This document shows positions 5,815 through 49,142 of a DNA stretch of 64,000 nt, one piece after another (position 1 is the stretch's first letter; every line of letters starts with the position of its first letter). Position numbers and translations under genes: made by a program. This DNA comes from Escherichia phage vB_EcoM_TH18. The stretch is taken from the sequence record ON075799. One strand, written 5' to 3'. The notes under the pieces were generated by a model that saw only the letters and a program-made list of their open reading frames with translations, was not told where the DNA came from and ran no database searches.

Positions 5815-5893
5815 TGGTTGCGAGTATTGGAATCGAACCTGCAATCTTCAGGGTATGAACCTAACATGGTAAATCCATTTCCACCAATCTGCA
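5815..5893 (-). tRNA. degenerate tRNA-like element (anticodon-loop CAU; weak acceptor and T stems)
   Basis: Canonical T-loop GGTTCGATTCC, D stem and anticodon arm TTAGG-TTCATAC-CCTGA present, but T stem and acceptor have several mismatches. Confidence 0.3.
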
Positions 5894-5899
5894 ATAATT

Positions 5900-5975
5900 T
5901 GGTGTGACGGACAGGATTCGAACCTGTGACCACCTAGTCTTCAGCAAGGCACTCTACCAACTGAGTTACCGTCAC
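5900..5975 (-). tRNA. tRNA-Phe (anticodon GAA)
   Basis: Manual cloverleaf: acceptor GTGACGG/CCGTCAC, D arm ACTC/GAGT, anticodon loop CTGAAGA, T loop TTCGAAT, encoded CCA. Confidence 0.8.
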
Positions 5976-5980
5976 ATAAT

Positions 5981-6057
5981 TGGTGGGCGATGAGGGACTC
6001 GAACCCCCAAAATTCAGGTTCTAAGCCTGACATGTATACCAATTCCATCAATCGCCC
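5981..6057 (-). tRNA. tRNA with anticodon UAG (Leu-reading) but short variable arm
   Basis: Acceptor GGGCGAT/ATCGCCC, anticodon arm TCAGG-CTTAGAA-CCTGA, T arm GGGGG-TTCGAGT-CCCTC, CCA encoded; D stem has one mismatch. Confidence 0.55.
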
Positions 6058-6071
6058 ATCTATATTAACAG

Positions 6072-6263
6072 TTATGGTTTTCCACGATACACAGAAATAG
6101 TTTTCCCATTAGCATTGATAACATAAGCGGTCTGATCCTCAGACAAAAACACTTTTTGATCAATGCCGGAAATAGCTATAGACTTTTGATGAGCACAATA
6201 CCCAACAATTTTCCCACAAAAAATTTGTTCATCATTTGGAGAGACGACTTTAACTGTTAACAT
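6072..6263 (-). CDS. small hypothetical protein (63 aa) inside the tRNA cluster
   Basis: Start refined to MLTVKVV with RBS agagga 6 nt upstream; the longer ORF-track start would overlap tRNA-Pro. Confidence 0.45.
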   Translation of the reverse strand: MLTVKVVSPNDEQIFCGKIVGYCAHQKSIAISGIDQKVFLSEDQTAYVINANGKTISVYRGKP

Positions 6264-6305
6264 GGTATCCTCTGTACATTTCTGCTTTGATATGTTTATG
6301 TTTGT

Positions 6306-6383
6306 TGGTCTGTCCGGTTGGATTTGAACCAACGACCTGGTCATCCCAAGTGACCCGCGCTACCCAAGCTGCGCTACGGACAG
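6306..6383 (-). tRNA. tRNA-Pro (anticodon UGG)
   Basis: Perfect cloverleaf: acceptor CTGTCCG/CGGACAG, D arm GCGC/GCGC, anticodon arm GGTCA-CTTGGGA-TGACC, T loop TTCAAAT, CCA encoded. Confidence 0.85.
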
Positions 6384-6467
6384 AGAAATGTAGATTTTAA
6401 TTGTCCCAGAATCTACTAACTGGTATCGCTGGCTAGGTGATATCTGTGACTTGATTAAGTCAAGAAT

Positions 6468-6559
6468 TGGCGGTTCCTGAAGGATTCGAACCTTCGGTGG
6501 GGAGATTCATTCCCAACGGCTTAACAGGCCGTCACCATCGACCACTCGGTCAAAGAACC
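6468..6559 (-). tRNA. type II (long variable arm) tRNA with anticodon GUU; identity uncertain
   Basis: 92 nt; acceptor GGTTCTT/AGGAACC (one G-U), anticodon arm ACGGC-CTGTTAA-GCCGT, ~20 nt variable arm, T arm GAAGG-TTCGAAT-CCTTC, CCA encoded. Confidence 0.55.
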
Positions 6560-6568
6560 TGAATATTT

Positions 6569-6645
6569 TGGTGGATCTGGTTGGGGTCGAACCAACAATC
6601 TCTCGATTAAAAGTCGAGTGACTTAAACCATTTGGCTACAAATCC
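6569..6645 (-). tRNA. tRNA-Lys (anticodon UUU), weak D arm
   Basis: Acceptor GGATTTG/CAGATCC, anticodon arm CTCGA-CTTTTAA-TCGAG, T arm GTTGG-TTCGACC-CCAAC, CCA encoded; D stem poorly paired. Confidence 0.55.
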
Positions 6646-6663
6646 GTTAAATTATCTTTAAAA

Positions 6664-6691
6664 TAGCTAATTACTCGCACATAATTAGCTA
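6664..6691 (-). terminator. hairpin plus U-run (terminator-like) within tRNA cluster
   Basis: Inverted repeat tagctaatt...aattagcta followed on the minus strand by TTTTAAAGA. Confidence 0.3.
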
Positions 6692-6878
6692 TACGCAACA
6701 ACTCTCCAAGGAGAGCACACTAATGATCGATTACGATTATATGACTAAATTTAGACCATCATAAGTGTTTGGCTTACGCCAGTAAAGAGCGGACTGCTCT
6801 GGGGTATCGGTAAGATGGTTGCAGCCATCTACCGAAAAATCACACCAAGCAACTAAACAAGCTACATTAAAGATAACT

Positions 6879-6967
6879 TGGAGGAGGCTGACAGAATCGA
6901 ACTGTCACCATATCTCTACAGCGGGACTGGGTTCAAACCAGCTTGTGCACCATGCACCCCAGCCTCC
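6879..6967 (-). tRNA. tRNA-Ser (anticodon UGA), type II
   Basis: 89 nt; acceptor GGAGGCT/AGCCTCC, anticodon arm GCTGG-TTTGAAC-CCAGT, long variable arm, T arm GACAG-TTCGATT-CTGTC, CCA encoded. Confidence 0.7.
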
Positions 6968-7038
6968 AAAGATAGCCTCTGCCGAGGATATACACCCAAC
7001 AAAGGAGGCGCTCAGGTCAGAAGAAATCTGAGCCTTAA

Positions 7039-7132
7039 TGGAGGAAGATGCCAGACTTGAACTGGCACACCCATTTCTGGGTTACTATCTCCTTAGCAGG
7101 GAGATCCCTTACCAAATTAGGGTTAATCTTCC
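7039..7132 (-). tRNA. tRNA-Ser (anticodon GCU), type II
   Basis: 94 nt; acceptor GGAAGAT/ATCTTCC, 3-bp D stem, anticodon arm TCTCC-CTGCTAA-GGAGA, T arm GCCAG-TTCAAGT-CTGGC, CCA encoded. Confidence 0.75.
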
Positions 7133-7153
7133 AATACCTTAGTAATTAAAAAC

Positions 7154-7243
7154 TGGTGGAGAAGGAGAGAATCGAACTCTCAAGCCGTTTTACCAGTCAG
7201 CACATTTCCAATGTGCTTTCGTCGCCAATCGATTTGCTTCTCC
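7154..7243 (-). tRNA. tRNA-Ser (anticodon GGA), type II
   Basis: 90 nt; acceptor GGAGAAG/CTTCTCC, anticodon arm GCACA-TTGGAAA-TGTGC, long variable arm, T arm GAGAG-TTCGATT-CTCTC, CCA encoded. Confidence 0.65.
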
Positions 7244-7252
7244 GTTTTAACT

Positions 7253-7328
7253 TGGCAGGGGATGGTTGATTCGAACAACCGATCACGGGGTCAAAGCCCG
7301 TTGCATTAGGCCACTATGCTAATCCCCT
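7253..7328 (-). tRNA. tRNA-Gln (anticodon UUG)
   Basis: Perfect cloverleaf: acceptor AGGGGAT/ATCCCCT, D arm GCAT/ATGC, anticodon arm ACGGG-CTTTGAC-CCCGT, T loop TTCGAAT, CCA encoded. Confidence 0.85.
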
Positions 7329-7333
7329 TTTGC

Positions 7334-7410
7334 ACGAGAGTGAGGAATAGAACCTCTTAGTCACTGGTTTTGGAGGCCAGCCTTCACCCAGTGAAGTTAC
7401 GCTACTCTCA
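7334..7410 (-). tRNA. non-canonical tRNA-like element
   Basis: Good acceptor (TGAGAGT/ACTCTCG) and T-loop-like GGTTCTATTCC, but D and anticodon regions do not fold into standard arms; no encoded CCA. Confidence 0.3.
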
Positions 7411-7417
7411 TTAAAAA

Positions 7418-7975
7418 CTATTTTCGAAAAGGACTTATGAAAAATGCCAACATCACTCTCTCTCTTGAAAAAGCTCTGTCTTCAGGAACCACACTCTTCA
7501 GTTTCCAACCGACATAAATTCGCCAGTAAAATTGTTTTCCAAACAATCTAAAAGACGGGACAAACGCGAATACACCCCACGCATTGTCATTCCACATCAA
7601 CAAATAGCCTTGTTGGTTATCCTCCACATCAGAGCTTACATGGAGGTTTCCTTTCCACTTTGTCACAGATGTGATTTCACGTCCAAGTACGTGATAGGAG
7701 AAATTGTAGGCTTTATTTCTCCACAACCAAGCAACTCGTTGTAGGTAAACACCAAAACTTCCTATTTTACGGACTTCTTCCCATCTCTCTATGTGTCCTC
7801 TATCACCGTCTATAGGATTATCATATGTCTCCATCCACCTGAAAATATAAGGCAGATGCCCTGTCTTCTCATTATAGAACGGAACAACAAAAGGAGCCAG
7901 AATAACACAGAGAACCGACATAACTGGGTCAAGAGGTGCTAACAGGATCCACGATAAATATTTTAAGTATCTCAT
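7418..7975 (-). CDS. hypothetical protein (185 aa, hydrophobic N-terminus)
   Basis: ORF from six-frame track; start overlaps stop of upstream gene (ATGA). Confidence 0.5.
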   Translation of the reverse strand: MRYLKYLSWILLAPLDPVMSVLCVILAPFVVPFYNEKTGHLPYIFRWMETYDNPIDGDRGHIERWEEVRKIGSFGVYLQRVAWLWRNKAYNFSYHVLGREITSVTKWKGNLHVSSDVEDNQQGYLLMWNDNAWGVFAFVPSFRLFGKQFYWRIYVGWKLKSVVPEDRAFSRERVMLAFFISPFRK

Positions 7976-8202
7976 GCAGGATCAAGCCTAGATATAATGT
8001 ACTGGTTTAAATCTGAATATGGGAAGATACTTTCAAAGATAACCTGTTTAAATCTGAAGCCGCACAAACCGAAAAGTACCTTCTGACACTCACCAAAAGA
8101 GCAATCTTTACCAACTTTTATCACAACCGTATCGGCAATCTGCACACTTTCTATCTCTTTAGATTCATGATGCCGTACTATGATTACTTTAGAAACCATC
8201 AT
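7972..8202 (-). CDS. hypothetical protein (76 aa)
   Basis: ORF from six-frame track; translationally coupled to downstream gene. Confidence 0.45.
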   Translation of the reverse strand: MMVSKVIIVRHHESKEIESVQIADTVVIKVGKDCSFGECQKVLFGLCGFRFKQVIFESIFPYSDLNQYIISRLDPA

Positions 8203-8327
8203 ACTCGTCCATATTAAAGCCTTCTACTAAAGATAGTAGATGTCTAGGGTTGGACCGCAAACGCAACCCCATGGAATTTGTTACGGTCTTCAGTTGACCC
8301 AAGCGGATTTCATTGACATCTTTTAAC

Positions 8328-8402
8328 TGGAGCATCCAGAGGGTATCGAACCCTCGACTTCAGCTTGGAAGGCTGTAGTTTTCCCAATTAAACTATGGAT
8401 GC
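8328..8402 (-). tRNA. tRNA-Gly (anticodon UCC)
   Basis: Acceptor GCATCCA/TGGATGC, D arm GTTT/AAAC, anticodon arm (A)CAGC-CTTCCAA-GCTG, T arm GAGGG-TTCGATA-CCCTC, CCA encoded. Confidence 0.75.
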
Positions 8403-8407
8403 ATATT

Positions 8408-8483
8408 TGGTGGGAGTGGTAGGCTCTGCCCCTACGTCCTCTCGATTATCGGTCGAGCGATCTACTAACTGATCTACACTCCC
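8408..8483 (-). tRNA. tRNA-like cloverleaf with Ile-type anticodon GAU but non-canonical D and T loops and C at position 33
   Basis: All four stems perfectly paired, CCA encoded, but D loop AGTTAGTA lacks GG, T loop is GGCAGAG (no TTC), anticodon loop is CCGATAA. Confidence 0.5.
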
Positions 8484-8546
8484 AAACTGTACTGGCCCAA
8501 CAACCACGATTGGAGGGTATCGTCACACATCAAAGCCAGTACAGTT
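8484..8546. other. long perfect hairpin (13-bp stem, ~37-nt loop) between two tRNA genes
   Basis: aaactgtactggc (8484-8496) and gccagtacagttt (8534-8546) are exact reverse complements. Confidence 0.6.
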
Positions 8547-8551
8547 TTAGT

Positions 8552-8641
8552 TGGTGTGCCGTGATAGAGTCGAACTACCCGAGTCCCTTTCGAGACAGGA
8601 GATTTACAGTCTCCCCCGCTACCCCTACGGTCTAACGACAC
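8552..8641 (-). tRNA. tRNA-Tyr (anticodon GUA), type II
   Basis: 90 nt; acceptor GTGTCGT/ACGGCAC (one G-U), anticodon arm GGAGA-CTGTAAA-TCTCC, long variable arm, T loop TTCGACT, CCA encoded. Confidence 0.7.
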
Positions 8642-8642
8642 A

Positions 8643-8990
8643 TTAACCTTGTTTGAATTGAACAATATCCGTCGAGAACGGTTTAGCTGCCTTAATAGGT
8701 GCTTTTTCTGAGTTATCTTTTTCGAGTAACTCTTCGTTTTCCTCATCAAAGTAATCAGAAAGCATCTGCTCACCTTTCTCAATAACATAACGAGCTATAT
8801 TTTCTCTGATATTGTCTTTTGTATTCACATTCTTCATCAAATCCCTAAGAACCTGATGAGCTTCAGGAATCATTGCAATCAGATTCGTTTTTAAATCTAG
8901 GATATTTTTCTCTAACTGAATTGCATTAGATTCCTCTTTCAGAGGACGACCTTTTCCTCTTCTACGTTTTGTAAGCTGCTTAGTAGCCAT
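8643..8990 (-). CDS. hypothetical protein (116 aa, basic N-terminus)
   Basis: Start refined to MATKQLTKRRRGKG; the longer ORF-track N-terminus overlaps the tRNA cluster; sigma70-like promoter just upstream. Confidence 0.5.
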   Translation of the reverse strand: MATKQLTKRRRGKGRPLKEESNAIQLEKNILDLKTNLIAMIPEAHQVLRDLMKNVNTKDNIRENIARYVIEKGEQMLSDYFDEENEELLEKDNSEKAPIKAAKPFSTDIVQFKQG

Positions 8991-9009
8991 TTTAAAACCC
9001 CACTTAATG

Positions 9010-9039
9010 ATATTATCAAATAAAAACATATCTGTCAAG
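9010..9039 (-). promoter_or_regulatory. sigma70-like promoter (TTGACA, 18-nt spacer, TAATAT)
   Basis: Minus strand reads TTGACA...TAATAT shortly upstream of the ATG at 8990. Confidence 0.5.
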
Positions 9040-9075
9040 TGGTATTTTAACATATTTACCAAGAAATTGAAAGTT

Positions 9076-9152
9076 TGGAGCACGGTGTCGGACTTGAACC
9101 GACATATATCTGTTTTGCAGACAGATCCGTAACCAAATTCCAGCAACCGTGC
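9076..9152 (-). tRNA. tRNA-Cys (anticodon GCA)
   Basis: Acceptor GCACGGT/ACCGTGC, anticodon arm TCTGT-CTGCAAA-ACAGA, T arm GTCGG-TTCAAGT-CCGAC, CCA encoded; D stem weak. Confidence 0.65.
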
Positions 9153-9228
9153 AATAAGTACCCCAGGTAGAGAACCTATAGAGTGGGTCTTACGAGCCGC
9201 GCTGACGATTCTCAAGTTGGGGTTAATC

Positions 9229-9305
9229 TGGTCGAGGAGACAGGATTCGAACCTGTGACCTACGGCTTAGAAGGCCGCTGCTCTATCCAACTGAGCTACA
9301 CCCCG
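9229..9305 (-). tRNA. tRNA-Arg (anticodon UCU)
   Basis: D arm GCTC-AGTTGGATA-GAGC, anticodon arm GCGGC-CTTCTAA-GCCGT, T arm ACAGG-TTCGAAT-CCTGT, CCA encoded; acceptor has one mismatch. Confidence 0.7.
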
Positions 9306-9505
9306 AAAATAAGAATGCTTTATAGTGTATGGTTACTCAACCTCACTCCAACTTCCACAGTTGGTGCTCTACGAGCATGACTACGTTTGAAATCAACGTT
9401 GCGCACCGATAGCTTTCTCACGCATTGTATGCCTCATTCCCAACAAATGCTGATCAGACATTTATATCGAATAATATAAGCTAATACACTATAAAACAAA
9501 CTTGT

Positions 9506-9602
9506 GGCTGGGTGATGGAATCGAACCACCTATGTATTCAACGGCTTCCCCGTCTATTTTCAGGATTATAAATCCTCGCCCTTGCCAAAGGGCTTACCCA
9601 GC
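9506..9602 (-). tRNA. over-long (97 nt) tRNA-like element, anticodon arm ambiguous
   Basis: Perfect acceptor (GCTGGGT/ACCCAGC), D arm GCCC-TTTGGCAA-GGGC, T arm GGTGG-TTCGATT-CCATC; central region has only a 4-bp stem with loop TTTATAA and ~30 extra nt; no encoded CCA. Confidence 0.35.
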
Positions 9603-9604
9603 AT

Positions 9605-9679
9605 TGGTGCTCGCAGCAGGTTTCGAACCTGCAACCCCCTGCTTACAAGGCAGGTGCTCTACCGTTGAGCTATACGAGC
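9605..9679 (-). tRNA. tRNA-Thr (anticodon UGU)
   Basis: Acceptor GCTCGTA/TGCGAGC, D arm GCTC/GAGC, anticodon arm CCTGC-CTTGTAA-GCAGG, T arm GCAGG-TTCGAAA-CCTGC, CCA encoded. Confidence 0.85.
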
Positions 9680-10044
9680 AATAAGACATTGCTTCCGATT
9701 AACAGCCTTGAGGCTTTACAGACCATATCTTGTGAGCCATAACCTGTGCCAAGGATTTCAGATGATAAACGAAATTTTATCTTTCAAGAGTCAACTTTCA
9801 AGTTTCATCTTTTACATTTAACCATTGACCTTTATTGTATGAACTTTTACTTAGTGGAAACAACAAGGCATCTTCGTGTGCCTCGCTGCATCTATGTCCT
9901 GTATTATCCTCATACATATACGATACATGGTGGGGGATATTTAACCTCCAACCCCCAGGAGGCAAGATGATGTAAACTTCGTTAATCAAAAGCAATGTTT
10001 TAAATTTCAAAACAAAGGAACGATAATGATATTATCAGAGCCTT

Positions 10045-10692
10045 TTAGAGAGAGTGCTCAATCTCAATTTCTGTCTTAGCGTTTGACTCAGACAACGCAA
10101 AATCAACGTTAGACAAGAAATCTTCAATCTCTTCTTCAAGAGAACGAATCTTAGAAGCCAGTTCAAGAGGATCCACAACCGATGGTGTGTTCATCATTCG
10201 AATAGGAGCTTCCACAGTCTTAATCTGCTCTGCATCTGGCGCTTTATCACGTTGGATATATGGCGCTCTTGCATTTTCAAGTTTATCTTCCAGAGATTTT
10301 TCTTCTTTTGCCAGAAGAAGCTGTGCAGAAGCACGCTGTGCACAAAGTTTGTTTAACAACTCTTGTTTAAAGCAAATCGTCCGTTTGCGTTCGATTGCCT
10401 CAGCAACTGTCATAGACACATTACCAATTTTGACAATTGTCTCAGCATTAGACTTAACAATTTTTGCTTTCAGTTCATCACGCACTGCCAAGAGGTCTTG
10501 CAGACTTTGATAGTCGTTGATCGCAGATTTCTTAAAATCATCAACAGAGCCGATATAACCCGGAATCTTACAATTATTCTCAGTTCCTTTTGCAATCTTA
10601 ATACAATCAAGATTGTAGATACGCTTATTGATCTTATCTTCAATTTTAGAGATAGAAGCAAGTGCACGAGTTACGGAAATCTTAGTAGACAT
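10045..10692 (-). CDS. hypothetical protein (215 aa, charged coiled-coil-like)
   Basis: ORF from six-frame track; charged, heptad-like composition. Confidence 0.55.
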   Translation of the reverse strand: MSTKISVTRALASISKIEDKINKRIYNLDCIKIAKGTENNCKIPGYIGSVDDFKKSAINDYQSLQDLLAVRDELKAKIVKSNAETIVKIGNVSMTVAEAIERKRTICFKQELLNKLCAQRASAQLLLAKEEKSLEDKLENARAPYIQRDKAPDAEQIKTVEAPIRMMNTPSVVDPLELASKIRSLEEEIEDFLSNVDFALSESNAKTEIEIEHSL

Positions 10693-10765
10693 GCGATCTC
10701 TCCTATGTAAATCAGCTTTGATAAAGTAACTATCCAGAAAAACAAAAACTATGTCAAGAAAAATT

Positions 10766-10957
10766 TTAATCTTTTACAGCATCTTTTATAGAATCACAAA
10801 GATCTTGAACAACATCAGATGTCGGTGACAAAATCATCTCGTCGGCTGCTGCTATAGCATCTGATGCTAAATCAACAAACGGAGTTGTTACCGCAGAAGT
10901 CACTTCAACAGCCGTTATTGTTACTTCGCTTGCAATCTTAAGCAAAGATCCTATCAT
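10766..10957 (-). CDS. hypothetical small acidic protein (63 aa)
   Basis: ORF from six-frame track in an otherwise gene-free gap. Confidence 0.4.
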   Translation of the reverse strand: MIGSLLKIASEVTITAVEVTSAVTTPFVDLASDAIAAADEMILSPTSDVVQDLCDSIKDAVKD

Positions 10958-11033
10958 AATCTCAACCCTCCTGAATATCCGTGATTCCCTTTATTTAACG
11001 ACGCTGGCTCACGGTGGCACTCTCGTCAATAAA

Positions 11034-11357
11034 CTATTTTTTAGTTTTCTTACCGTTTTCTACAGAAATGCTTGTTTTCTGTTTCGCTTCTCGTTCGCGC
11101 TTTGTTTTCCCAGTGCGAATACGATATGAAGCAGAAATAACTTCACCACCAATGACACGAGACACAGATTCGTAATACATTTCAGTATTACCGTCTTCAT
11201 CTTTGCGTTTTTTCAGAACTGCTACAGTTTGCGTTTTACCACCAAGGCGCACATCGTGCGGTGCAGAATGTGTCTGCGTGGATTTTGATCCAAACTGAAA
11301 AGGTTGCTTTATCGCCTCGATAGCTGACACCTTTTTAGCAGACTGTTTCTTAGCCAT
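11034..11357 (-). CDS. hypothetical basic protein (107 aa)
   Basis: Start refined to MAKKQSAKK with strong RBS ggagga upstream; lysine/arginine-rich. Confidence 0.55.
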   Translation of the reverse strand: MAKKQSAKKVSAIEAIKQPFQFGSKSTQTHSAPHDVRLGGKTQTVAVLKKRKDEDGNTEMYYESVSRVIGGEVISASYRIRTGKTKREREAKQKTSISVENGKKTKK

Positions 11358-11408
11358 TAAGTTTTCTCCTCCGAAAACAATAAACATAGTTTATTTCGTG
11401 TGCCACAT

Positions 11409-11485
11409 TTGGTGGCCCCTGCTGGACTTGAACCAGCGACCAAGCGATTATGAGTCACCTGCTCTATCCAACTGAGCTAAGGGGC
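11409..11485 (-). tRNA. tRNA-Met (anticodon CAU; initiator/elongator/Ile2 not distinguished)
   Basis: Acceptor GGCCCCT/AGGGGCC, D arm GCTC-AGTTGGATA-GAGC, anticodon loop CTCATAA, T arm GCTGG-TTCAAGT-CCAGC, CCA encoded. Confidence 0.8.
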
Positions 11486-11818
11486 CGAATCTCTTAATAT
11501 GAGATGATATTATCCTGTATGATCTACATTGTCAAGAGATATTTTAAAATTTTATACATCCCAGTTTTCTTCTTGATAACAACCTTCCCCGAATCCAACT
11601 TCTTTTTCAAAATCAATACCTTTTTTCATACATTCCTCACATTAACAGATATTGTTTTCAAACTCAAAACGTAAAATACGAACTCTGTCAATACACTGCT
11701 GTAATCTACAAAGCAACAACTCAACTTGTTTATGCGTCTCTTCAGTATACGTTTTGGTCATCTTGCTTTTCTCCGTGATCTTTTCATTGCAGCTTCTGCA
11801 CGTCTTTGTTTACGATTT

Positions 11819-14984: not shown

Positions 14985-15382
14985 GATTTATCTCCTCTAG
15001 CACGATTGACGATAATATAATTTCTTGGTTTCACGTTACCATCAGAATCCTGAAATCCTGATCTGACACGCCTGACATAACCAAAGCTCTCCATCCGAGA
15101 CAGAAATTCAGACACTTTGGTTCGTGAGTTTTCGTTCCACCCCAACAGACCACACAAGGATTGCTGTGACGGAAAGAATACCAGTTCCCCACCCAAGGGG
15201 TTCCGACTCTTGAAATACTCGTATCTCCACAACAAGCGTATCAGTCTTTGCAGATCGCTTGGTGATAACCGTTCATCAAAAACCCACTCTGTCGGCACAG
15301 CGATGTACGACCCAGCTTTCGGATTTACATGGAAACCCCCAACATTCGATTTCAAGGCAAACTCCGGTGTGTAATTCAACAC
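14981..15382 (-). CDS. hypothetical protein (133 aa)
   Basis: ORF from six-frame track; first minus-strand gene beside the AT-rich strand-switch region. Confidence 0.5.
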   Translation of the reverse strand: MLNYTPEFALKSNVGGFHVNPKAGSYIAVPTEWVFDERLSPSDLQRLIRLLWRYEYFKSRNPLGGELVFFPSQQSLCGLLGWNENSRTKVSEFLSRMESFGYVRRVRSGFQDSDGNVKPRNYIIVNRARGDKS

Positions 15383-15452
15383 CGAGAATGCTACTCATAA
15401 CACCACACAATGTCAACCCCTCCCATATGTCCCCATTTCAGGGACATTATGA

Positions 15453-15540
15453 TCTAATATAATATATATTATATAATATAATTTAATATAATACTACGTA
15501 TTATATATATTATAATATATATATATAATTTATATAAAAT
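15453..15540. repeat. AT-only low-complexity repeat tract (TA/ATA-type)
   Basis: ~90 nt of taatataatatatattatataatataatttaatataat... between divergent gene blocks. Confidence 0.8.
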
Positions 15541-15640
15541 ACACTAAGTCTTGAAGAATGTCAAGACTTGATTTTAAATATTTTTGTTGATATGATTCGA
15601 TTGAGTCGAATCGTATGGTTCGATGATTTCGAATCATAGA
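15541..15640. promoter_or_regulatory. cluster of palindromes at the divergent intergenic region
   Basis: agtcttga-agaatg-tcaagact, gattcga-ttgag-tcgaatc and atgattTCGAAtcat dyads next to the AT tract. Confidence 0.5.
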
Positions 15641-15976
15641 GTTCATGTTGTTTTGCCTGAAATCGTGAGTCGATGAGACTCTTCAGGCAATACGTGAGTG
15701 TGTAAGATGCTCACTGCGCTGATAGCTTGTGATCATCTAACCCTCATGAGCCATTCTGAGATAAACCCACATCAACAAACCCCACAGGTTTGTCTCTGTG
15801 TGTTAATCTCAATCATGGATTCGGGTTGTCACAAGTCACTATGTGACTCTGTGTGGGGATTTCGAATGTGTACCGGAGCATGGCGCACAGGACTGGTTCA
15901 TCTGTCCGTCTCAACTGGGGCGCGGCGGGGGTTAAGGTTTAGTTTTACGTTTTGTGTGGGTGTGGAGGAGAGTTTT

Positions 15977-28276: not shown

Positions 28277-28372
28277 TCTTTACAATCTCGCCTATTGACA
28301 CCGGATCACGCTTACATTATTATCTATCTTGTAGGGCAAGCAATACCGCAAGCCCACAAAGAGGACAATAAA

Positions 28373-28741
28373 ATGAGCAAATCAGCAATTAAAGCACTTG
28401 AAAAAGCGCAAAAAGTGATCGCTACTTCCACCACTGGCGCAAGTATTAATCTGATCGCTTACTTGGAAGATGAAACTATCCGTAAAAATTGGCGTAATAC
28501 TGATTTGCTGGCTTGCTTATTGATTAATAGTGTTGCTAATGCTTTCCAGTGTGAAACAGCCGAGAGCCTGGAAGAAAACTTGTTTGACAATATGGATCAA
28601 GCCATTGAAACCTATATCCAATCAAATCTGGATAGCTGGAACAGTAAAACATGGCCCGACAGCTTACGCGATACAACTGACCAACTGATCCGCCTTGCGG
28701 TGATGGTTGAACGCGATAACGTTTACAGCCGCACAAAGTAA
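28373..28741 (+). CDS. hypothetical protein (122 aa)
   Basis: Start refined to MSKSAIK with RBS aagagga; promoter TTGACA-17-TATTAT upstream. Confidence 0.55.
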   Translation: MSKSAIKALEKAQKVIATSTTGASINLIAYLEDETIRKNWRNTDLLACLLINSVANAFQCETAESLEENLFDNMDQAIETYIQSNLDSWNSKTWPDSLRDTTDQLIRLAVMVERDNVYSRTK

Positions 28742-28750
28742 GATAGTACA

Positions 28751-28779
28751 AAGGGCGCTTAATGCGCCCTTTCTTTTTG
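28751..28779 (+). terminator. strong rho-independent terminator closing the plus-strand block
   Basis: aagggcgc-ttaa-tgcgccctt followed by TTCTTTTT. Confidence 0.75.
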
Positions 28780-29165
28780 CCCTAACAAACATGATAAGTT
28801 TTATCTATCAAAACACCACACAGAAAGAAAGTGAATAAAACGCGGTATCGAGCTAAACGAGGGTGGGCAATACAACGGCAAGGCTAAACAATTAAGGCTG
28901 TTATAACGCGATTTAGGCCGCTTAAAATCGATCCCCACCACAAACAACACCCACAAAATGACCAAAACGACACAACATGACTTAAATGATAACCATTCCC
29001 AACAACATAAGCATTTTTATGCAATTTGAGTGAATATCTATTTAAATGATAATGACTCTCAACAACAAACTAACACGACCGAAGCGATTCAATCGCCTAC
29101 CACAAAATTAATCACTTGTAAAGAGTAATTTGAAAAAAGCTGCGTAGGTGGCGCGACCGTAGGGA

Positions 29166-29440
29166 GCGACACAATAACGCAGTAGTAGCCCCTCACCCCT
29201 CCTTCCAGTCGCCCCCGGTATCGGGGCAGCGTTATTGTGTCGCTAAGCGACAACGCGTTAACAATTTTGCAAGATTTTATTAATACTTTAACTGTTATAA
29301 TTTTATTGCAAAATTGTTAACCTACTGCGTTATTGTGTCACGTAGTGATTAGTTACATATGTAACTAACAGCTATCACTGCAAAATTGTGTCACGTAGTG
29401 ATTAGCTGAGAATCAGCTAACCCGTAAAACGGGCTAAATT
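29166..29440. repeat. cluster of inverted and direct repeats flanking an AT-rich core (candidate origin or regulatory hub)
   Basis: gcgacacaataacgcagtag at 29166-29185 with reverse-complement copies at 29229-29243 and 29321-29340; 16-bp dyad 29257-29272/29306-29321; direct repeat attgtgtcacgtagtgattag at 29332 and 29385; palindromes gttacatatgtaac and agctgagaatcagct. Confidence 0.7.
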
Positions 29441-30604
29441 GTGTCCGGTACGGATGAGATAATCTCTCATTAATCCCCGATTATTACGCAGTAAATCACC
29501 ATGAATCACCTGTTTTTAACCCTGTTATTGTGTTCTTGCCCAGGGATAACCGCTTACTATGCGGTTAAATGCTGTATAGTCGCTACGCGATTAAGCGCGA
29601 TGCGCTTAACCTGCAAAGCAGGCTTCTAAGTGCCTGAAATGCCAGATCAATTTGGTCACTGCGTGATCATGATTGCGACAATAATTTGCTTATGATTTGC
29701 TATTTATTTGTTTGTAGTTGGTTATAGTTGTTATGGTTTGTTTGTTAATAGTTGCTATAATTTTGCTTTATTTGATTTTATTTGTTAAACACCCTTTTAT
29801 CATTCCTCTTACATTTTCGCAATATTTATTTTTGTTATCGTTTTCCCTCATTTCATTTCGTTATTGAAAACAAGAATTATTATCAATGCGCCTTAACAGG
29901 CTGACAGGTCTGTTAGTGGGCTAGCTCTCTGTGTGGTTATGTGTCGGCTGTTATTGTTAGCTTGCTTATTGTTGTGTGGTGTATGTACCAGTTAACTAGT
30001 ACATTGTGTGGTGCGCATAACGTGTATTATGTTAAATCGCTAAGCCCACAAATCAGGTGACTTGTCAATAACAATAAGTGCTGTGTGCGGTAGGTCTGAC
30101 CTATCAGTGTGCCCCTTTGTTGTGTGGTGCTTCCAATGGCTGGTCTGCCTGCTGTCTGTGCTGCGTCAGGAATCGAGGGGACTCGATCGCAATAGCTGTA
30201 AGATATTTTGTAAAGATTCGTAGTTTTTCTTGACACCCACAATCGTCTGCCTAACCCTTCAGAGATAAATACTTCAGAGATTTATCTGGGCTTTTTACCC
30301 TTCAGGTATAGAGACGTGTGTTTTATCCCTCACTTCTGAGATAAAGCCGTAGATATTTTCACTCTTCACATCATGTGCAAGTTAATACATGTATGTCTTT
30401 ACAGACGGGGTGGGGTAACAATCAGGAAGTGGTCTGGCAGTGATAACGCACTGGATAAAAGCTCTGTGTGGATTGTCGATGATATTTGTGTGTGTGGGAA
30501 ATGCTGATAGGCAAGAGATAAGACACTTGTCTCCGGCAGGGGTGGGGTGTGGAAAAGAAATGGGCCTGTCCGACCCATTGTGTTACAGAGATGAAACGCC
30601 TATC

Positions 30605-30856
30605 TCACCATTGACCAGGTAAGCCAATATCAAGGCCAAATTCGTGACATTCATCCCAGTCAAGACTTTGATTCCAGTTTGTAACTGTTTGCTCTGTGTG
30701 GTGGGTGTGTGATGCTCTCTGTGACTGCTTGGGCATCTTTTTTGTCTGGGATTTCCCGAAGAGAGGTGTGTTGTCATTAAGTCTTCCGGCAGCCTTTTCA
30801 CCCTTTTTGACTTGTCTCCCACGGGCATTCCACTGCTCCAGTGTCCTGTAACACAT
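30605..30856 (-). CDS. possible small basic protein (83 aa)
   Basis: ORF with aggaga RBS ~9 nt upstream; lies in an otherwise low-complexity non-coding region. Confidence 0.3.
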   Translation of the reverse strand: MCYRTLEQWNARGRQVKKGEKAAGRLNDNTPLFGKSQTKKMPKQSQRASHTHHTEQTVTNWNQSLDWDECHEFGLDIGLPGQW

Positions 30857-31247
30857 AAAATGATTCTCCTGTAATATCTGGTGTGGGAATGATAGTGGAG
30901 AATGTCAGTCGTGTCAAGTAGGTTGCTCAGAGGCGCTATTATAAAAATTTTTTGGTGGCTTTCTGGGGCTTGTTGTGGGACTGTAAACAAGCTGTGGAGC
31001 CAGATGTGACGGGGCTTTCAGCCATGTTGTGTGTTGATAGCAAATAAGGATAAAATAATCAATATAAATGCGGATAAATGTTGTTTTATTGCGGTTGTGT
31101 GACTAGTGTGTCAATTCTTGATAGGCTATGTCTTGTACATATTTTGTACAATTGTGTGGTGTGTGGAGTTTGGGTGGCAATTCCCCAGACGGGGTAGGGT
31201 AGGTTATGGTGGGGAGCAGGGGCATGGTTAGCCCCATATGATCAGGG

Positions 31248-31565
31248 TTATGCGTCTGTTTGTTTGAACTGGTCTTTTGAACGTATTATATAGCTGCATC
31301 CGTATTTTCTTAGCCAGACAAGTTCCCATGGACTATCACTCAGGTTCTTCCTGTTTATCTCTTTTAGCTGGGCAACCGCATCGTCCCATGATGTGACTTC
31401 GAGATAACCGATAAGACAGTCCTCTCCAAAATCTCCGTAATCAAATGTGCATCTGACCTTGGCGATAAACTCTGTTTGTGGGCTTGTTGGTTTTACAAAA
31501 GCCCGGTGAAAGATTTGTTCTGTGCAGTGCTCATTAACCCATCTGATTTGTGTGGTCATAATCAC
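31248..31565 (-). CDS. hypothetical protein (105 aa)
   Basis: ORF from six-frame track; last gene of the minus-strand block. Confidence 0.55.
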   Translation of the reverse strand: MIMTTQIRWVNEHCTEQIFHRAFVKPTSPQTEFIAKVRCTFDYGDFGEDCLIGYLEVTSWDDAVAQLKEINRKNLSDSPWELVWLRKYGCSYIIRSKDQFKQTDA

Positions 31566-47753: not shown

Positions 47754-47985
47754 TCCCGCACCACTACGTGCTGCTGCATGTCACCATGCAGACCAGACCA
47801 TATCTTCATGCTTAAAGCATGTCTGCCGTTTGGGGTGTCATCAGCTTACACTCTACATCCCTACATTCATCAGGATTGGTCGTTAGGCATTTACGGTTGA
47901 TACCGATTTAGCACGGGATTCCCTCCATAGAGGATTCCCCCGTTTAGGCAGATTTTACATGAGCAGTTATAGTTTACCCATGCTT
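47726..47985 (-). mobile_element. putative group I intron in nrdD (no ORF; boundaries approximate)
   Basis: Non-coding insert with a 38-nt block (47755-47792) identical to one in the terminase intron (609-646); S-like agaccatatc and R-like ggtcgtta elements. Confidence 0.5.
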
Positions 47986-49142
47986 GTAACACGCCCGTCT
48001 GAAGAACCTGTTACCTTTTTATTCAACGGTACAGATATGAAATCTGGATAAATCCTTTCAACACAACACTCCATGGCTAATTGCTTTAAGTCGTAGTTGG
48101 GATCGCCAGGTTTCATGTTTACACCATCTTCCAAGAAGAAGATAACTTTTGGAAAAACAGGTGTGACTTTGTCTTTGCCAAGTCCGTTTTTGTGAACAAG
48201 AAGATAATTCTTTGTAATCATTCTCCCAAAATAGGAAGTATCAAGCCCAAGACTCAAGGTGATAAATGGGCATTGACCGTTAGCACTCATCAAGGTATTT
48301 ACCTGATAAAGCAATGTCTGCATAGCATCGTAAACATCTTTTTCCGTCATCTGCATAGCTACACCTTCTGGGTCTGGCAGCCATTGCTCCTGACAAAATT
48401 TTAGATTTTTATCGTAACTTGCCTTGGCATATTGTTTTAATCCTTCATCAATATGGGTGTATGACTGACCACCATATTGAACCGAAGAAACTGATTGGGA
48501 TATCTGGCTAAGAATGGTACAGGCAACACCTATCGATTTCGGCTTTTCTATTTTTGCATTGCCAATTTTAAAACCGTTCTCCAACATATCCCTATAATTT
48601 ACAAGACTGCAATTAGTTAATGGGCTTATCAAATAATCTAAGTCATGTATATGACCATAACCATTTGTATGCCATTCAGCCAATTCTTTTGGTAGAATTT
48701 GAGTTAGTGAGACGTGCTTGCTAAGGATACCCGCGAGAAGATCACGATGGCTACTAACCACCCCACTTGGTTTATTAGCGTTTTCTTTAGTAAATTCATC
48801 GGCAGTTTGTTCTAAGAATCCCGTAATATCTGCAAACAGTTTTCCTTTACCTTCCCTAACGTTATCACGCGTTTTACGATATTCAATATACGCCCGTGCA
48901 GCGTTCTTGAGGTCAAGATCCATTAGTGAATCTTCCACAATGCGGTGAATATCACAAACAGCCACTTTCTCTTGCGGTGGTTCTGATTTTTCCAGAGTTT
49001 CATAGGCTTGCTCGCCAACTGCACACGCCAGAGGATATGATTTCTCACCATAACCAGCAGCAATTAAAGCGGCTTCTGCCGCTTTAATAACTTTCACACC
49101 ATCATAATCTTCTTCACGCCCATCACGTTTAACAACTTTCAT
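47967..49142 (-). CDS. nrdD: anaerobic ribonucleotide reductase NrdD, 5' exon (N-terminal region)
   Basis: N-terminus MKVVKRDGREEDYDGVKVIKAAEAA (ATP-cone-like); ORF 3' end likely runs a few codons into the intron. Confidence 0.75.
   Translation of the reverse strand: MKVVKRDGREEDYDGVKVIKAAEAALIAAGYGEKSYPLACAVGEQAYETLEKSEPPQEKVAVCDIHRIVEDSLMDLDLKNAARAYIEYRKTRDNVREGKGKLFADITGFLEQTADEFTKENANKPSGVVSSHRDLLAGILSKHVSLTQILPKELAEWHTNGYGHIHDLDYLISPLTNCSLVNYRDMLENGFKIGNAKIEKPKSIGVACTILSQISQSVSSVQYGGQSYTHIDEGLKQYAKASYDKNLKFCQEQWLPDPEGVAMQMTEKDVYDAMQTLLYQVNTLMSANGQCPFITLSLGLDTSYFGRMITKNYLLVHKNGLGKDKVTPVFPKVIFFLEDGVNMKPGDPNYDLKQLAMECCVERIYPDFISVPLNKKVTGSSDGRVTSMGKL

Follow-up and report, generated by a model that had tools for sequence, protein, structure and literature searches.

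What is the function of a gene-poor stretch with an extreme strand bias that lies between two converging gene blocks of a phage genome? The question is raised by positions 29690-31250 (plus-strand coordinates) of a 64,000-nt stretch of DNA, hereafter the window, for which an original prediction had offered three readings: a structured non-coding RNA, G-quadruplex-forming DNA or a specialised cis-acting region. Our analysis supports the last of these. The stretch is a real, specialised cis-acting region, comprising a terminal-repeat and packaging region together with a recombination site that resembles bacterial dif. With a probability of roughly 0.8, we consider it to be the genome-end region of a linear phage DNA with short direct terminal repeats (DTRs), seen in minus-strand view, with the dif-like site inside the repeat. 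A genome-end region is a known kind of feature that has so far been unmapped in the genus concerned, Avunavirus.

Position and ends of the predicted terminal repeat

The window is 100% identical to the Escherichia phages 18-1-2, 19-1-2 and 24-2-1 and about 88% identical to Av-05 (Avunavirus, Vequintavirinae); judged by sequence identity, its source is an Avunavirus phage. The stretch falls within a 2.5-kb gap (28742-31247) between converging gene blocks, with the plus-strand genes stopping at 28741 and the minus-strand genes at 31248, and intrinsic terminators close both converging transcription units short of the predicted repeat. In all related loci, the conserved block lies in a gene-poor gap of 1.2-3.5 kb, and the same layout is found in phage vB_EcoM_Gotham (hereafter Gotham) and in the Klebsiella phage KPP-1.

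The DTR of Gotham was determined to be 459 bp on the basis of coverage (PMC7471380), a repeat that is also annotated in its record, and that of KPP-1 to be 514 bp, from coverage and PhageTerm (PMC9862379). The Erwinia phage Hena1 carries an annotated 519-bp repeat, with the identical 519 bases at both contig ends, and the repeat of phage Jab is 475 bp long. The window was aligned with mapped repeats, and 40 related loci were inspected. In Gotham and KPP-1, the repeat is found in the equivalent gap between converging gene blocks, flanked on either side by about 1 kb that is poor in genes. The window gene at 28085-28276 matches the left-end gene of Gotham (on the opposite strand), positions 30008-30040 match the interior of the Gotham repeat, and shared 10-mers are colinear. 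At the predicted repeat start, the motif ttag/GCAGACG (the slash marks the boundary) aligns with the DTR starts cca/GGCGGACG of Gotham, cta/GACGGACA of KPP-1 and tta/GACGGACA of Hena1, the last being a contig end. The conserved cut junction at this point is TCTGnnnnGYTA/GRCGGAC, and the Hena1 contig opens exactly at GACGGAC. Inside the repeat, the blocks GTCAA...ATCTTTACAAAATATC stand in register with those of the mapped repeats, and a conserved 27-nt block lies 213-214 nt from the repeat start, as it does in the mapped phages (169-170 nt in Vequintavirus). The repeat end takes the form of TTGACA or a similar hexamer, followed by 18-19 nt (about 24 nt in one version of the rule) and then by /TAGCA, and the distal DTR of KPP-1 and Hena1 is A+T-rich, like that of the window. 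Given that the conserved blocks are in register, the window repeat can be placed on the minus strand from about 30251 to about 29758. At the level of sequence, the alignment demonstrates homology to mapped terminal repeats in both position and sequence, and from it we infer where exactly the ends of this phage lie.

Four direct copies of a CTGAAG motif (30254-30348) adjoin the predicted cut, and short motifs in 2-4 copies per genus abut the cut elsewhere, such as cctgaagag in four copies in Gotham and caccatctg in two copies in KPP-1. We interpret these cut-adjacent repeats as putative recognition repeats of the terminase. In the comparison with Av-05, positions 30180-30305 are almost invariant and their flanks unalignable; across the locus, the alignment consists of near-perfect islands (30305-30180, 30040-29948 and 29700-29625) amid indel-rich sequence, a pattern that would be expected of protein-recognition sites. 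In minus-strand order, the gene block that ends at 31248 would thus be followed by an arm of about 1 kb (31247 to 30252), the four CTGAAG copies, the cut at 30251/30250 and the repeat itself, which would extend to about 29758. The virion DNA would have this repeat at each end; the assembled sequence has it collapsed to one copy.

The locus shares with the Vequintavirinae DTRs of Gotham, KPP-1 and Hena1 the converging gap, the arms of about 1 kb, the junction, the spacing of the internal blocks, the end motif, the dif-like site and a similar length (about 494 bp, as predicted). It differs from the mapped repeats of this subfamily in its variant cut motif, a much stronger skew, a much greater number of CCACACA motifs and the presence of a small gene in one arm, and its ends are predicted rather than mapped. 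A further parallel is phage T7, where arrays of short repeats flank the 160-bp terminal repeat at the concatemer junction. The predicted organization is similar to that of T7 in the short exact terminal repeat, the flanking non-coding arrays of co-oriented motifs and cutting at a fixed site, whereas the sequences and proteins are unrelated, the arms are much longer, and the 'T7-like' typing is that of KPP-1 by PhageTerm only.

Several points weigh against the assignment as a genome-end region. The ends in this phage are predictions only, no Avunavirus ends have been mapped, and the Av-05 record has been deposited as circular. Similarity to the repeats of other genera is low outside the conserved blocks, the far boundary at about 29758 is soft, and the cut motif of the window (GCAGAC, in the context GCAGACG) deviates from the consensus GACGGAC. 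The strong skew is specific to Avunavirus, the trend in other genera being of the same sign but weak, so that skew itself is no requirement of the terminus.

Two candidate indicators of the ends were rejected: the contig ends of the assemblies of this phage do not mark physical ends, since the contigs run through the region, and the 'repeat_region' features in Danish phage records denote a 34-bp repeat instead of a DTR. Metagenome and genome collections contained no match to an Avunavirus-specific 33-mer. Two NCBI genome assemblies, GCA_002972255.1 and GCA_002972075.1, include contigs of this virulent phage, which could reflect contamination or a carrier state.

In the 2013 paper on phage rV5, which took the genome to be circularly permuted, the map shows a 'non-coding' box without explanation; under the present assignment, this long-noted block is now explained. 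Predicted genome ends for Avunavirus phages, which have been deposited as circular or partial sequences, are useful for annotation, engineering and quality control in phage therapy.

A dif-like site within the predicted repeat

The conserved 27-nt block also matched metagenomic contigs with wholly unrelated, even G+C-rich, flanks and was therefore recognised as a dif site. The site in the window reads GGTGCGCATAA-CGTGTA-TTATGTTAAAT, and the dif site of E. coli K12 is GGTGCGCATAATGTATATTATGTTAAAT, i.e., GGTGCGCATAA-TGTATA-TTATGTTAAAT (PMC2731167). The inverted 11-bp XerC and XerD arms are identical to those of the host at 22 of 22 positions, the centre differs at two of its six positions, and the site is the sole match in the window (0 expected). 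The centre thus has 6 bp, within the 6-8 bp of Xer sites, and it is 6 bp long in all relatives. In every Vequintavirinae locus examined, the XerD arm is perfect and the XerC arm matches at 9-11 of its 11 positions, around a centre of CGTGTA, TGGGTA, CGTGTT or GGTGTA, and the site is always located within the repeat, in fixed orientation to the cut. A BLAST search of a 36-nt segment against GenBank phages returned 276 records, mostly Vequintavirinae; the genera with the site are Vequintavirus, Avunavirus, Mydovirus, Seunavirus, Certrevirus and Henunavirus. The same search also returned the Xer-exploiting CTXphi, as well as a few other phages in which the match is near a record end.

In its 28-bp plan of an 11-bp XerC arm, a 6-bp centre and an 11-bp XerD arm, the site is similar to chromosomal dif, ColE1 cer and pSC101 psi, and, as in a plasmid dimer, the Xer site would lie in a direct repeat on one molecule. 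In contrast to dif, cer and psi, it is found on a virulent tailed phage and within a terminal repeat, its centre is CGTGTA vs TGTATA, and its substrate would be linear; accessory sequences or FtsK-orienting polar sequences (KOPS) were not recognised at the phage site. The integrative mobile elements exploiting Xer (IMEX), which include CTXphi, VGJphi, TLCphi and gokushovirus prophages, likewise are phage genomes with a dif-like site that host XerCD should recognise. Unlike these elements, which integrate at the host dif and are small, mostly single-stranded DNA phages, the present one is a 120-kb lytic myovirus with the site in its terminal repeat. A search of 5,426 complete E. coli genomes with positions 29300-31300 gave no matches, so that neither integrated nor episomal copies were found, and the centre differs from that of the host at the two positions already mentioned; the phage accordingly does not qualify as an IMEX.

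The presence of this site in the repeat suggests that the phage may borrow the host XerC/XerD recombinase, and recombination between the two repeat copies, resulting in circularisation or joining, would be the likely use. Because the site lies in the terminal repeat, a genome that carries one site would present it twice, in direct orientation, on the injected molecule, and there is no other way to achieve this. Host XerC and XerD would bind the two direct copies on the injected genome and recombine them; intramolecular recombination would yield a circular genome and intermolecular recombination head-to-tail concatemers, without the need for homologous recombination, and a centre unlike that of the host would disfavour crossover with the chromosomal dif. 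Phage P1 cyclises its terminally redundant DNA by Cre-loxP recombination, using its own recombinase, and is packaged by the headful mechanism with variable redundancy. As in P1, a site-specific recombination site in the terminal repeat would result in the entry of two direct copies into the cell; the differences are the proposed reliance on host XerCD and the exact repeats. Taken to its full extent, the scenario would be that the Vequintavirinae keep a host-type Xer site in the terminal repeat so that the host chromosome-dimer resolvase circularises or concatenates the incoming linear genome, with the divergent centre as a safeguard against crossover with the host. It would then parallel P1 Cre-lox, but with no phage recombinase, and be the first case of a tailed lytic phage using Xer other than for integration. 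We put this scenario forward tentatively and consider it less probable than not. XerCD might also have an architectural role at the packaging site.

The following observations speak against the use of the site in recombination. Recombination at dif normally requires activation by FtsK. The KOPS sequence GGGNAGGG is not enriched in the window (5 copies vs 3.3 expected), and its single regional copy points away from the site. A phage protein similar to FtsK-gamma or XafT was not found: the label 'DNA translocase FtsK' on a small repeat-adjacent Vequintavirus protein, which was considered as a candidate FtsK-gamma-like activator, has no Pfam support, and the neighbouring window proteins have no FtsK matches in Pfam. 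A caveat on the divergent centre is that the host centre TGTATA is absent among the IMG/VR matches partly by construction, since this first search pattern forced an nGnGTn centre (the BLAST set was unconstrained, and its centres were not tabulated).

We found no mention of Xer or dif in Vequintavirinae or tailed lytic phages in the searchable literature, and the conserved host-type Xer site in these phages appears undescribed. A dif-like site with perfect arms is conserved in the terminal repeats of many phages that are candidates for therapy against E. coli, Klebsiella, Salmonella, Cronobacter, Pectobacterium and Erwinia. Dependence on XerCD, if true, would represent a new host-factor dependency, through which resistance might arise and which engineering could exploit, and circularisation, if true, would offer linear phage genomes a new means of evading attack on their ends.

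Other dif-like matches were observed beyond these phages. Partial matches near record ends occur in unrelated phages (Escherichia phages SLUR75, SLUR26 and SHIN8, of about 60 kb, Elizabethkingia phage EKP1 and Ralstonia phage p2106), and Pseudomonas phage vB_PpS_SYP has two partial copies near its record end. In an 85-kb uncultivated phage contig (L111) with no relatives among GenBank phages, a dif-like site follows three tandem 22-nt repeats. It may be that Xer-type sites close to the ends of phage genomes are more common. Four metagenomic or IMG/VR contigs (L013, L033, L055 and L071) contain dif-like pairs followed by 2-5 perfect DnaA boxes (TTATCCACA) and sequences similar to LexA boxes; they resemble elements that exploit Xer, or else replicons of marine bacteria. 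Within the window, the palindrome ATGTACCAGTTAACTAGTACAT (29983-30004) lies 5 nt from the XerC arm and is less perfect in Av-05 and in the GCA_002972075.1 contig; it matches the TrpR operator consensus, GTACTAGTTAACTAGTAC, at 17 of 18 positions.

Strand bias, sub-terminal arms and alternative readings

The features of the locus are listed in Table 1.

Table 1. Features of the gap between the converging gene blocks, in window coordinates.
Feature	Position	Strand	Remarks
Predicted DTR, about 494 bp	29758..30251	-	by homology; about +/-5 nt at 30251, about +/-30 nt at 29758
Predicted terminase cut site and four (T/C)CTGAAG-type direct copies	30244..30348	-	last copy abuts the cut
dif-like site GGTGCGCATAA-CGTGTA-TTATGTTAAAT	30010..30037	+	XerC arm 30010-30020, centre 30021-30026, XerD arm 30027-30037
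Right sub-terminal arm	30252..31247	-	from last minus-strand gene stop (31248) to DTR
C-rich, G-poor stretch, candidate Rho-utilisation zone	30921..31247	-	just downstream of last gene
83-aa gene	30856..30605	-	sigma-70-like promoter 30917 to 30889, ribosome-binding site, intrinsic terminator 30579 to 30559
Nine co-oriented CCACACA	29930..31166	-	29936, 29979, 30011, 30127, 30471, 30497, 30701, 31159, 31166
CAGACGGGGT(G/A)GGGTA, 16-nt family, three copies	30402-30417, 30534-30549, 31186-31201	+	the G-tracts of the original prediction
Sole four-tract G-quadruplex candidate	31191..31222	+	loops 2, 11, 4 (loops <= 12)
T-rich tract	29690..29880	+	GC 0.24, T/A 2.45; A-rich distal DTR and first left-arm bases
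Left sub-terminal arm	28742..29757		outside the stretch 29690-31250
Left-arm intrinsic terminator	28750-28772
Left-arm mirrored C+A-rich stretch	28790-29150		homologous to phAPEC8 gap
Left-arm perfect 16-bp inverted repeat GCGACACAATAACGC/GCGTTATTGTGTCGC (AGCGACACAATAACGC / GCGTTATTGTGTCGCT)	29165-29244		conserved with flank in KPP-1
Hairpin cassette array	29160-29640		ATTGTGTC-type unit before each; three 26-29-nt direct repeats exactly 53 nt apart

The strong G+T skew that first drew attention to the stretch is real: its G+T content of 0.603 is the maximum among all same-size windows in the 64 kb (mean 0.490, sd 0.024), and only 0.16% of such windows deviate as much from 0.5. The repeated motif, the G-tracts and the T-rich tract of the original prediction were recovered as well. 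The motif GTGTGGTG occurs 11 times in the window vs 1.5 expected (both strands), including five exact plus-strand copies at 29974-31161, and TTGTGTGGTG has 23 matches at <=1 mismatch vs 4.8 expected, six of them in the stretch. Their common core on the opposite strand is CCACACA (31 in the window vs 8.2 expected); among the nine co-oriented copies in Table 1, one overlaps the XerC arm and one is within the 83-aa gene, about half are kept in Av-05, and similar co-oriented copies are present in the arm and the DTR of Gotham. The 16-nt family that accounts for the G-tracts is largely kept in Av-05, where the counterpart of the 30402-30417 copy diverges in the CAGACG part. The plus-strand G+T excess is the sum of the minus-strand co-oriented elements (nine CCACACA, three CCCCACCCCGTCTG, four CTGAAG and the A-rich tail) and a bias of C over G; it arises because co-oriented minus-strand motifs are combined with C-rich, G-poor sequence along the incoming transcription. 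On the other side, outside the stretch, the skew is mirrored, with positions 28790-29150 being C+A-rich on the plus strand (G+T 0.374).

Several candidate functions of the motifs were rejected. Plus-strand promoters around TTGTGTGGTG yielded one good case, at 15407, with the motif in the spacer, and the copies in the stretch have no usable hexamers. A Chi-like reading of GTGTGGTG involves three mismatches to GCTGGTGG and inconsistent orientation (by inspection), and the resemblance to Tus/Ter and matS sites is too weak (by eye). A second CCACACA/TGTGTGG cluster, of four copies with switching orientation, is located at 15150-15959 in a divergent promoter region, where one copy fills the spacer of the strong promoter-like site TTGACA-ttgtgtggtgttatgag-TAGCAT at about 15407.

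The G-tracts bear on the suggestion that the DNA forms G-quadruplexes as a regulatory or structural element. The region contains 10 of the 92 runs of at least four G in the window and one four-tract candidate; however, the scan gave no candidate at loops <= 7, the single one at loops <= 12 lacks conservation, since Av-05 has lost one of its tracts through a 5-nt deletion, and the other G-tracts are only paired, as in GGGGTGGGG. We regard this suggestion as scarcely tenable. The notion that the G+T-rich strand is transcribed into a structured non-coding RNA or several small RNAs fares no better and has, in our estimate, an almost negligible probability. A long ORF-poor stretch (ORF, open reading frame) is indeed conserved with Av-05, and there are a few local palindromes, such as TGTACAAAATATGTACA near 31130 (z = -3.0), but the folding z-scores of both strands average about 0 over 29690-31250, no convincing plus-strand promoter is present, conservation is block-wise with many indels, and Rfam (15) gave nothing for the stretch, either at the gathering score or at E <= 1 (chance microRNA matches lie outside it). 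The hairpin-rich part of the locus is the neighbouring 29160-29640 array, where folding z reaches -4.4 on both strands.

The right arm is about 1 kb long, and its Gotham counterpart measures 989 nt from the last gene to the DTR. Along this arm, the C/G ratio of the minus-strand RNA is 2.2-3.6 in consecutive 78-nt windows at 30921-31247, and it is 3.75 and 2.55 after the terminator of the 83-aa gene. Compared with what characterises a Rho-utilisation site (at least 80 nt unstructured, C>G, past a stop codon), the values are C/G of 2.2-3.75 and a fold z near 0, although composition alone is not diagnostic. This composition fits Rho-dependent insulation of the terminus, a role that we infer. The right arm is a C-rich, G-poor segment with a single small autonomous gene and an intrinsic terminator at its end. 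The same data could be taken to mean that the locus is a transcription buffer and nothing else, in which Rho stops the converging units on C-rich, G-poor RNA, with no role as a genome end. In addition to the C/G ratios of the transcribed strand downstream of the last gene and of the 83-aa gene, this would be consistent with the mirror-image bias on the other side and with phage phAPEC8, where a homologous C+A-rich stretch follows a homologous gene and terminator while transcription continues in the same direction. A buffer, however, does not account for the dif-like site, for the fact that a contig ends at GACGGAC or for the register that the conserved blocks keep with those of mapped repeats, and intrinsic terminators are already in place; as the sole function, it appears very improbable.

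In the left arm, the sequence flanking the perfect inverted repeat, GTTATTGTGTCGCTC.CTACG.TCGCGCCAC, is kept in KPP-1, which belongs to another genus (locus L009, about 3641 and 3831). The inverted repeat at 29165-29244 is probably a protein-binding site. The cassettes of the adjoining hairpin array have been gained and lost among the window, the GCA_002972075.1 contig and Av-05. These features, together with the T-rich tract, could also belong to a replication origin, in which the A+T-rich tract would unwind, the ATTGTGTC and CCACACA units would be iterons, and the skew diverging from about 29200-29650 would reflect origin polarity; such an origin would be compatible with a terminus at the same locus. 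Consistent with an origin are the GC content of the tract (0.24), the direct repeats 53 nt apart, the perfect inverted repeats at 29165-29339, an origin-like polarity of the skew, with the G-rich strand leading away on both sides, and the location of dif-like sites beside perfect DnaA-box arrays in some unrelated metagenomic contigs. However, DnaA boxes number 90 in the window vs 90.5 expected at <=1 mismatch, with no perfect box in 28700-31300, and there is no adjacent initiator gene. The iteron-like units lie outside the stretch (29160-29640) and vary by cassette indels between close strains, the A+T-rich tract is mostly inside the predicted DTR and is matched by equally A+T-rich distal DTRs in KPP-1 and Hena1, and the GC skew at the scale of the window tracks gene orientation. 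We consider an origin unlikely, and the assignment as a genome-end region remains the preferred one.

Genes in and around the gap

The original prediction described the stretch as non-coding, with short, low-complexity ORFs. This does not hold for the 83-aa ORF in the right arm, which is a real, conserved gene: it is free of indels in a comparison of four phage variants, falls into PHROG 25175 (E = 1e-36) and has homologs in other phage genera, for example, with 61% identity in Erwinia phage pEa_SNUABM_55. The N-terminus of the protein gives an ArdC_N-like, sub-threshold match. The remaining small ORFs, including two that are annotated in GenBank, are frameshifted by indels in close relatives. 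Translated, conserved small ORFs had been named as evidence that would count against the non-coding interpretation, and the 83-aa gene is the only ORF of this kind.

At the other end of the gap, the last plus-strand ORF (28295-28741, 148 aa, PHROG 15368) is absent from Av-05. Its product is up to about 92% identical (81-90% for most matches) to proteins of phAPEC8-like phages, which belong to another subfamily, and the phAPEC8 homolog is likewise followed by a terminator and a C+A-rich gap of 1.5 kb. More distant homologs are encoded near the record ends of phiEco32-like phages and Klebsiella siphophages.

Elsewhere in the window, the minus-strand gene block contains a group I intron (47774-48014, minus strand; Rfam RF00028, 79.8 bits). 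ARAGORN identified 16 tRNA genes at 5815-11486 on the minus strand, and Rfam added a 17th at 8411-8483.

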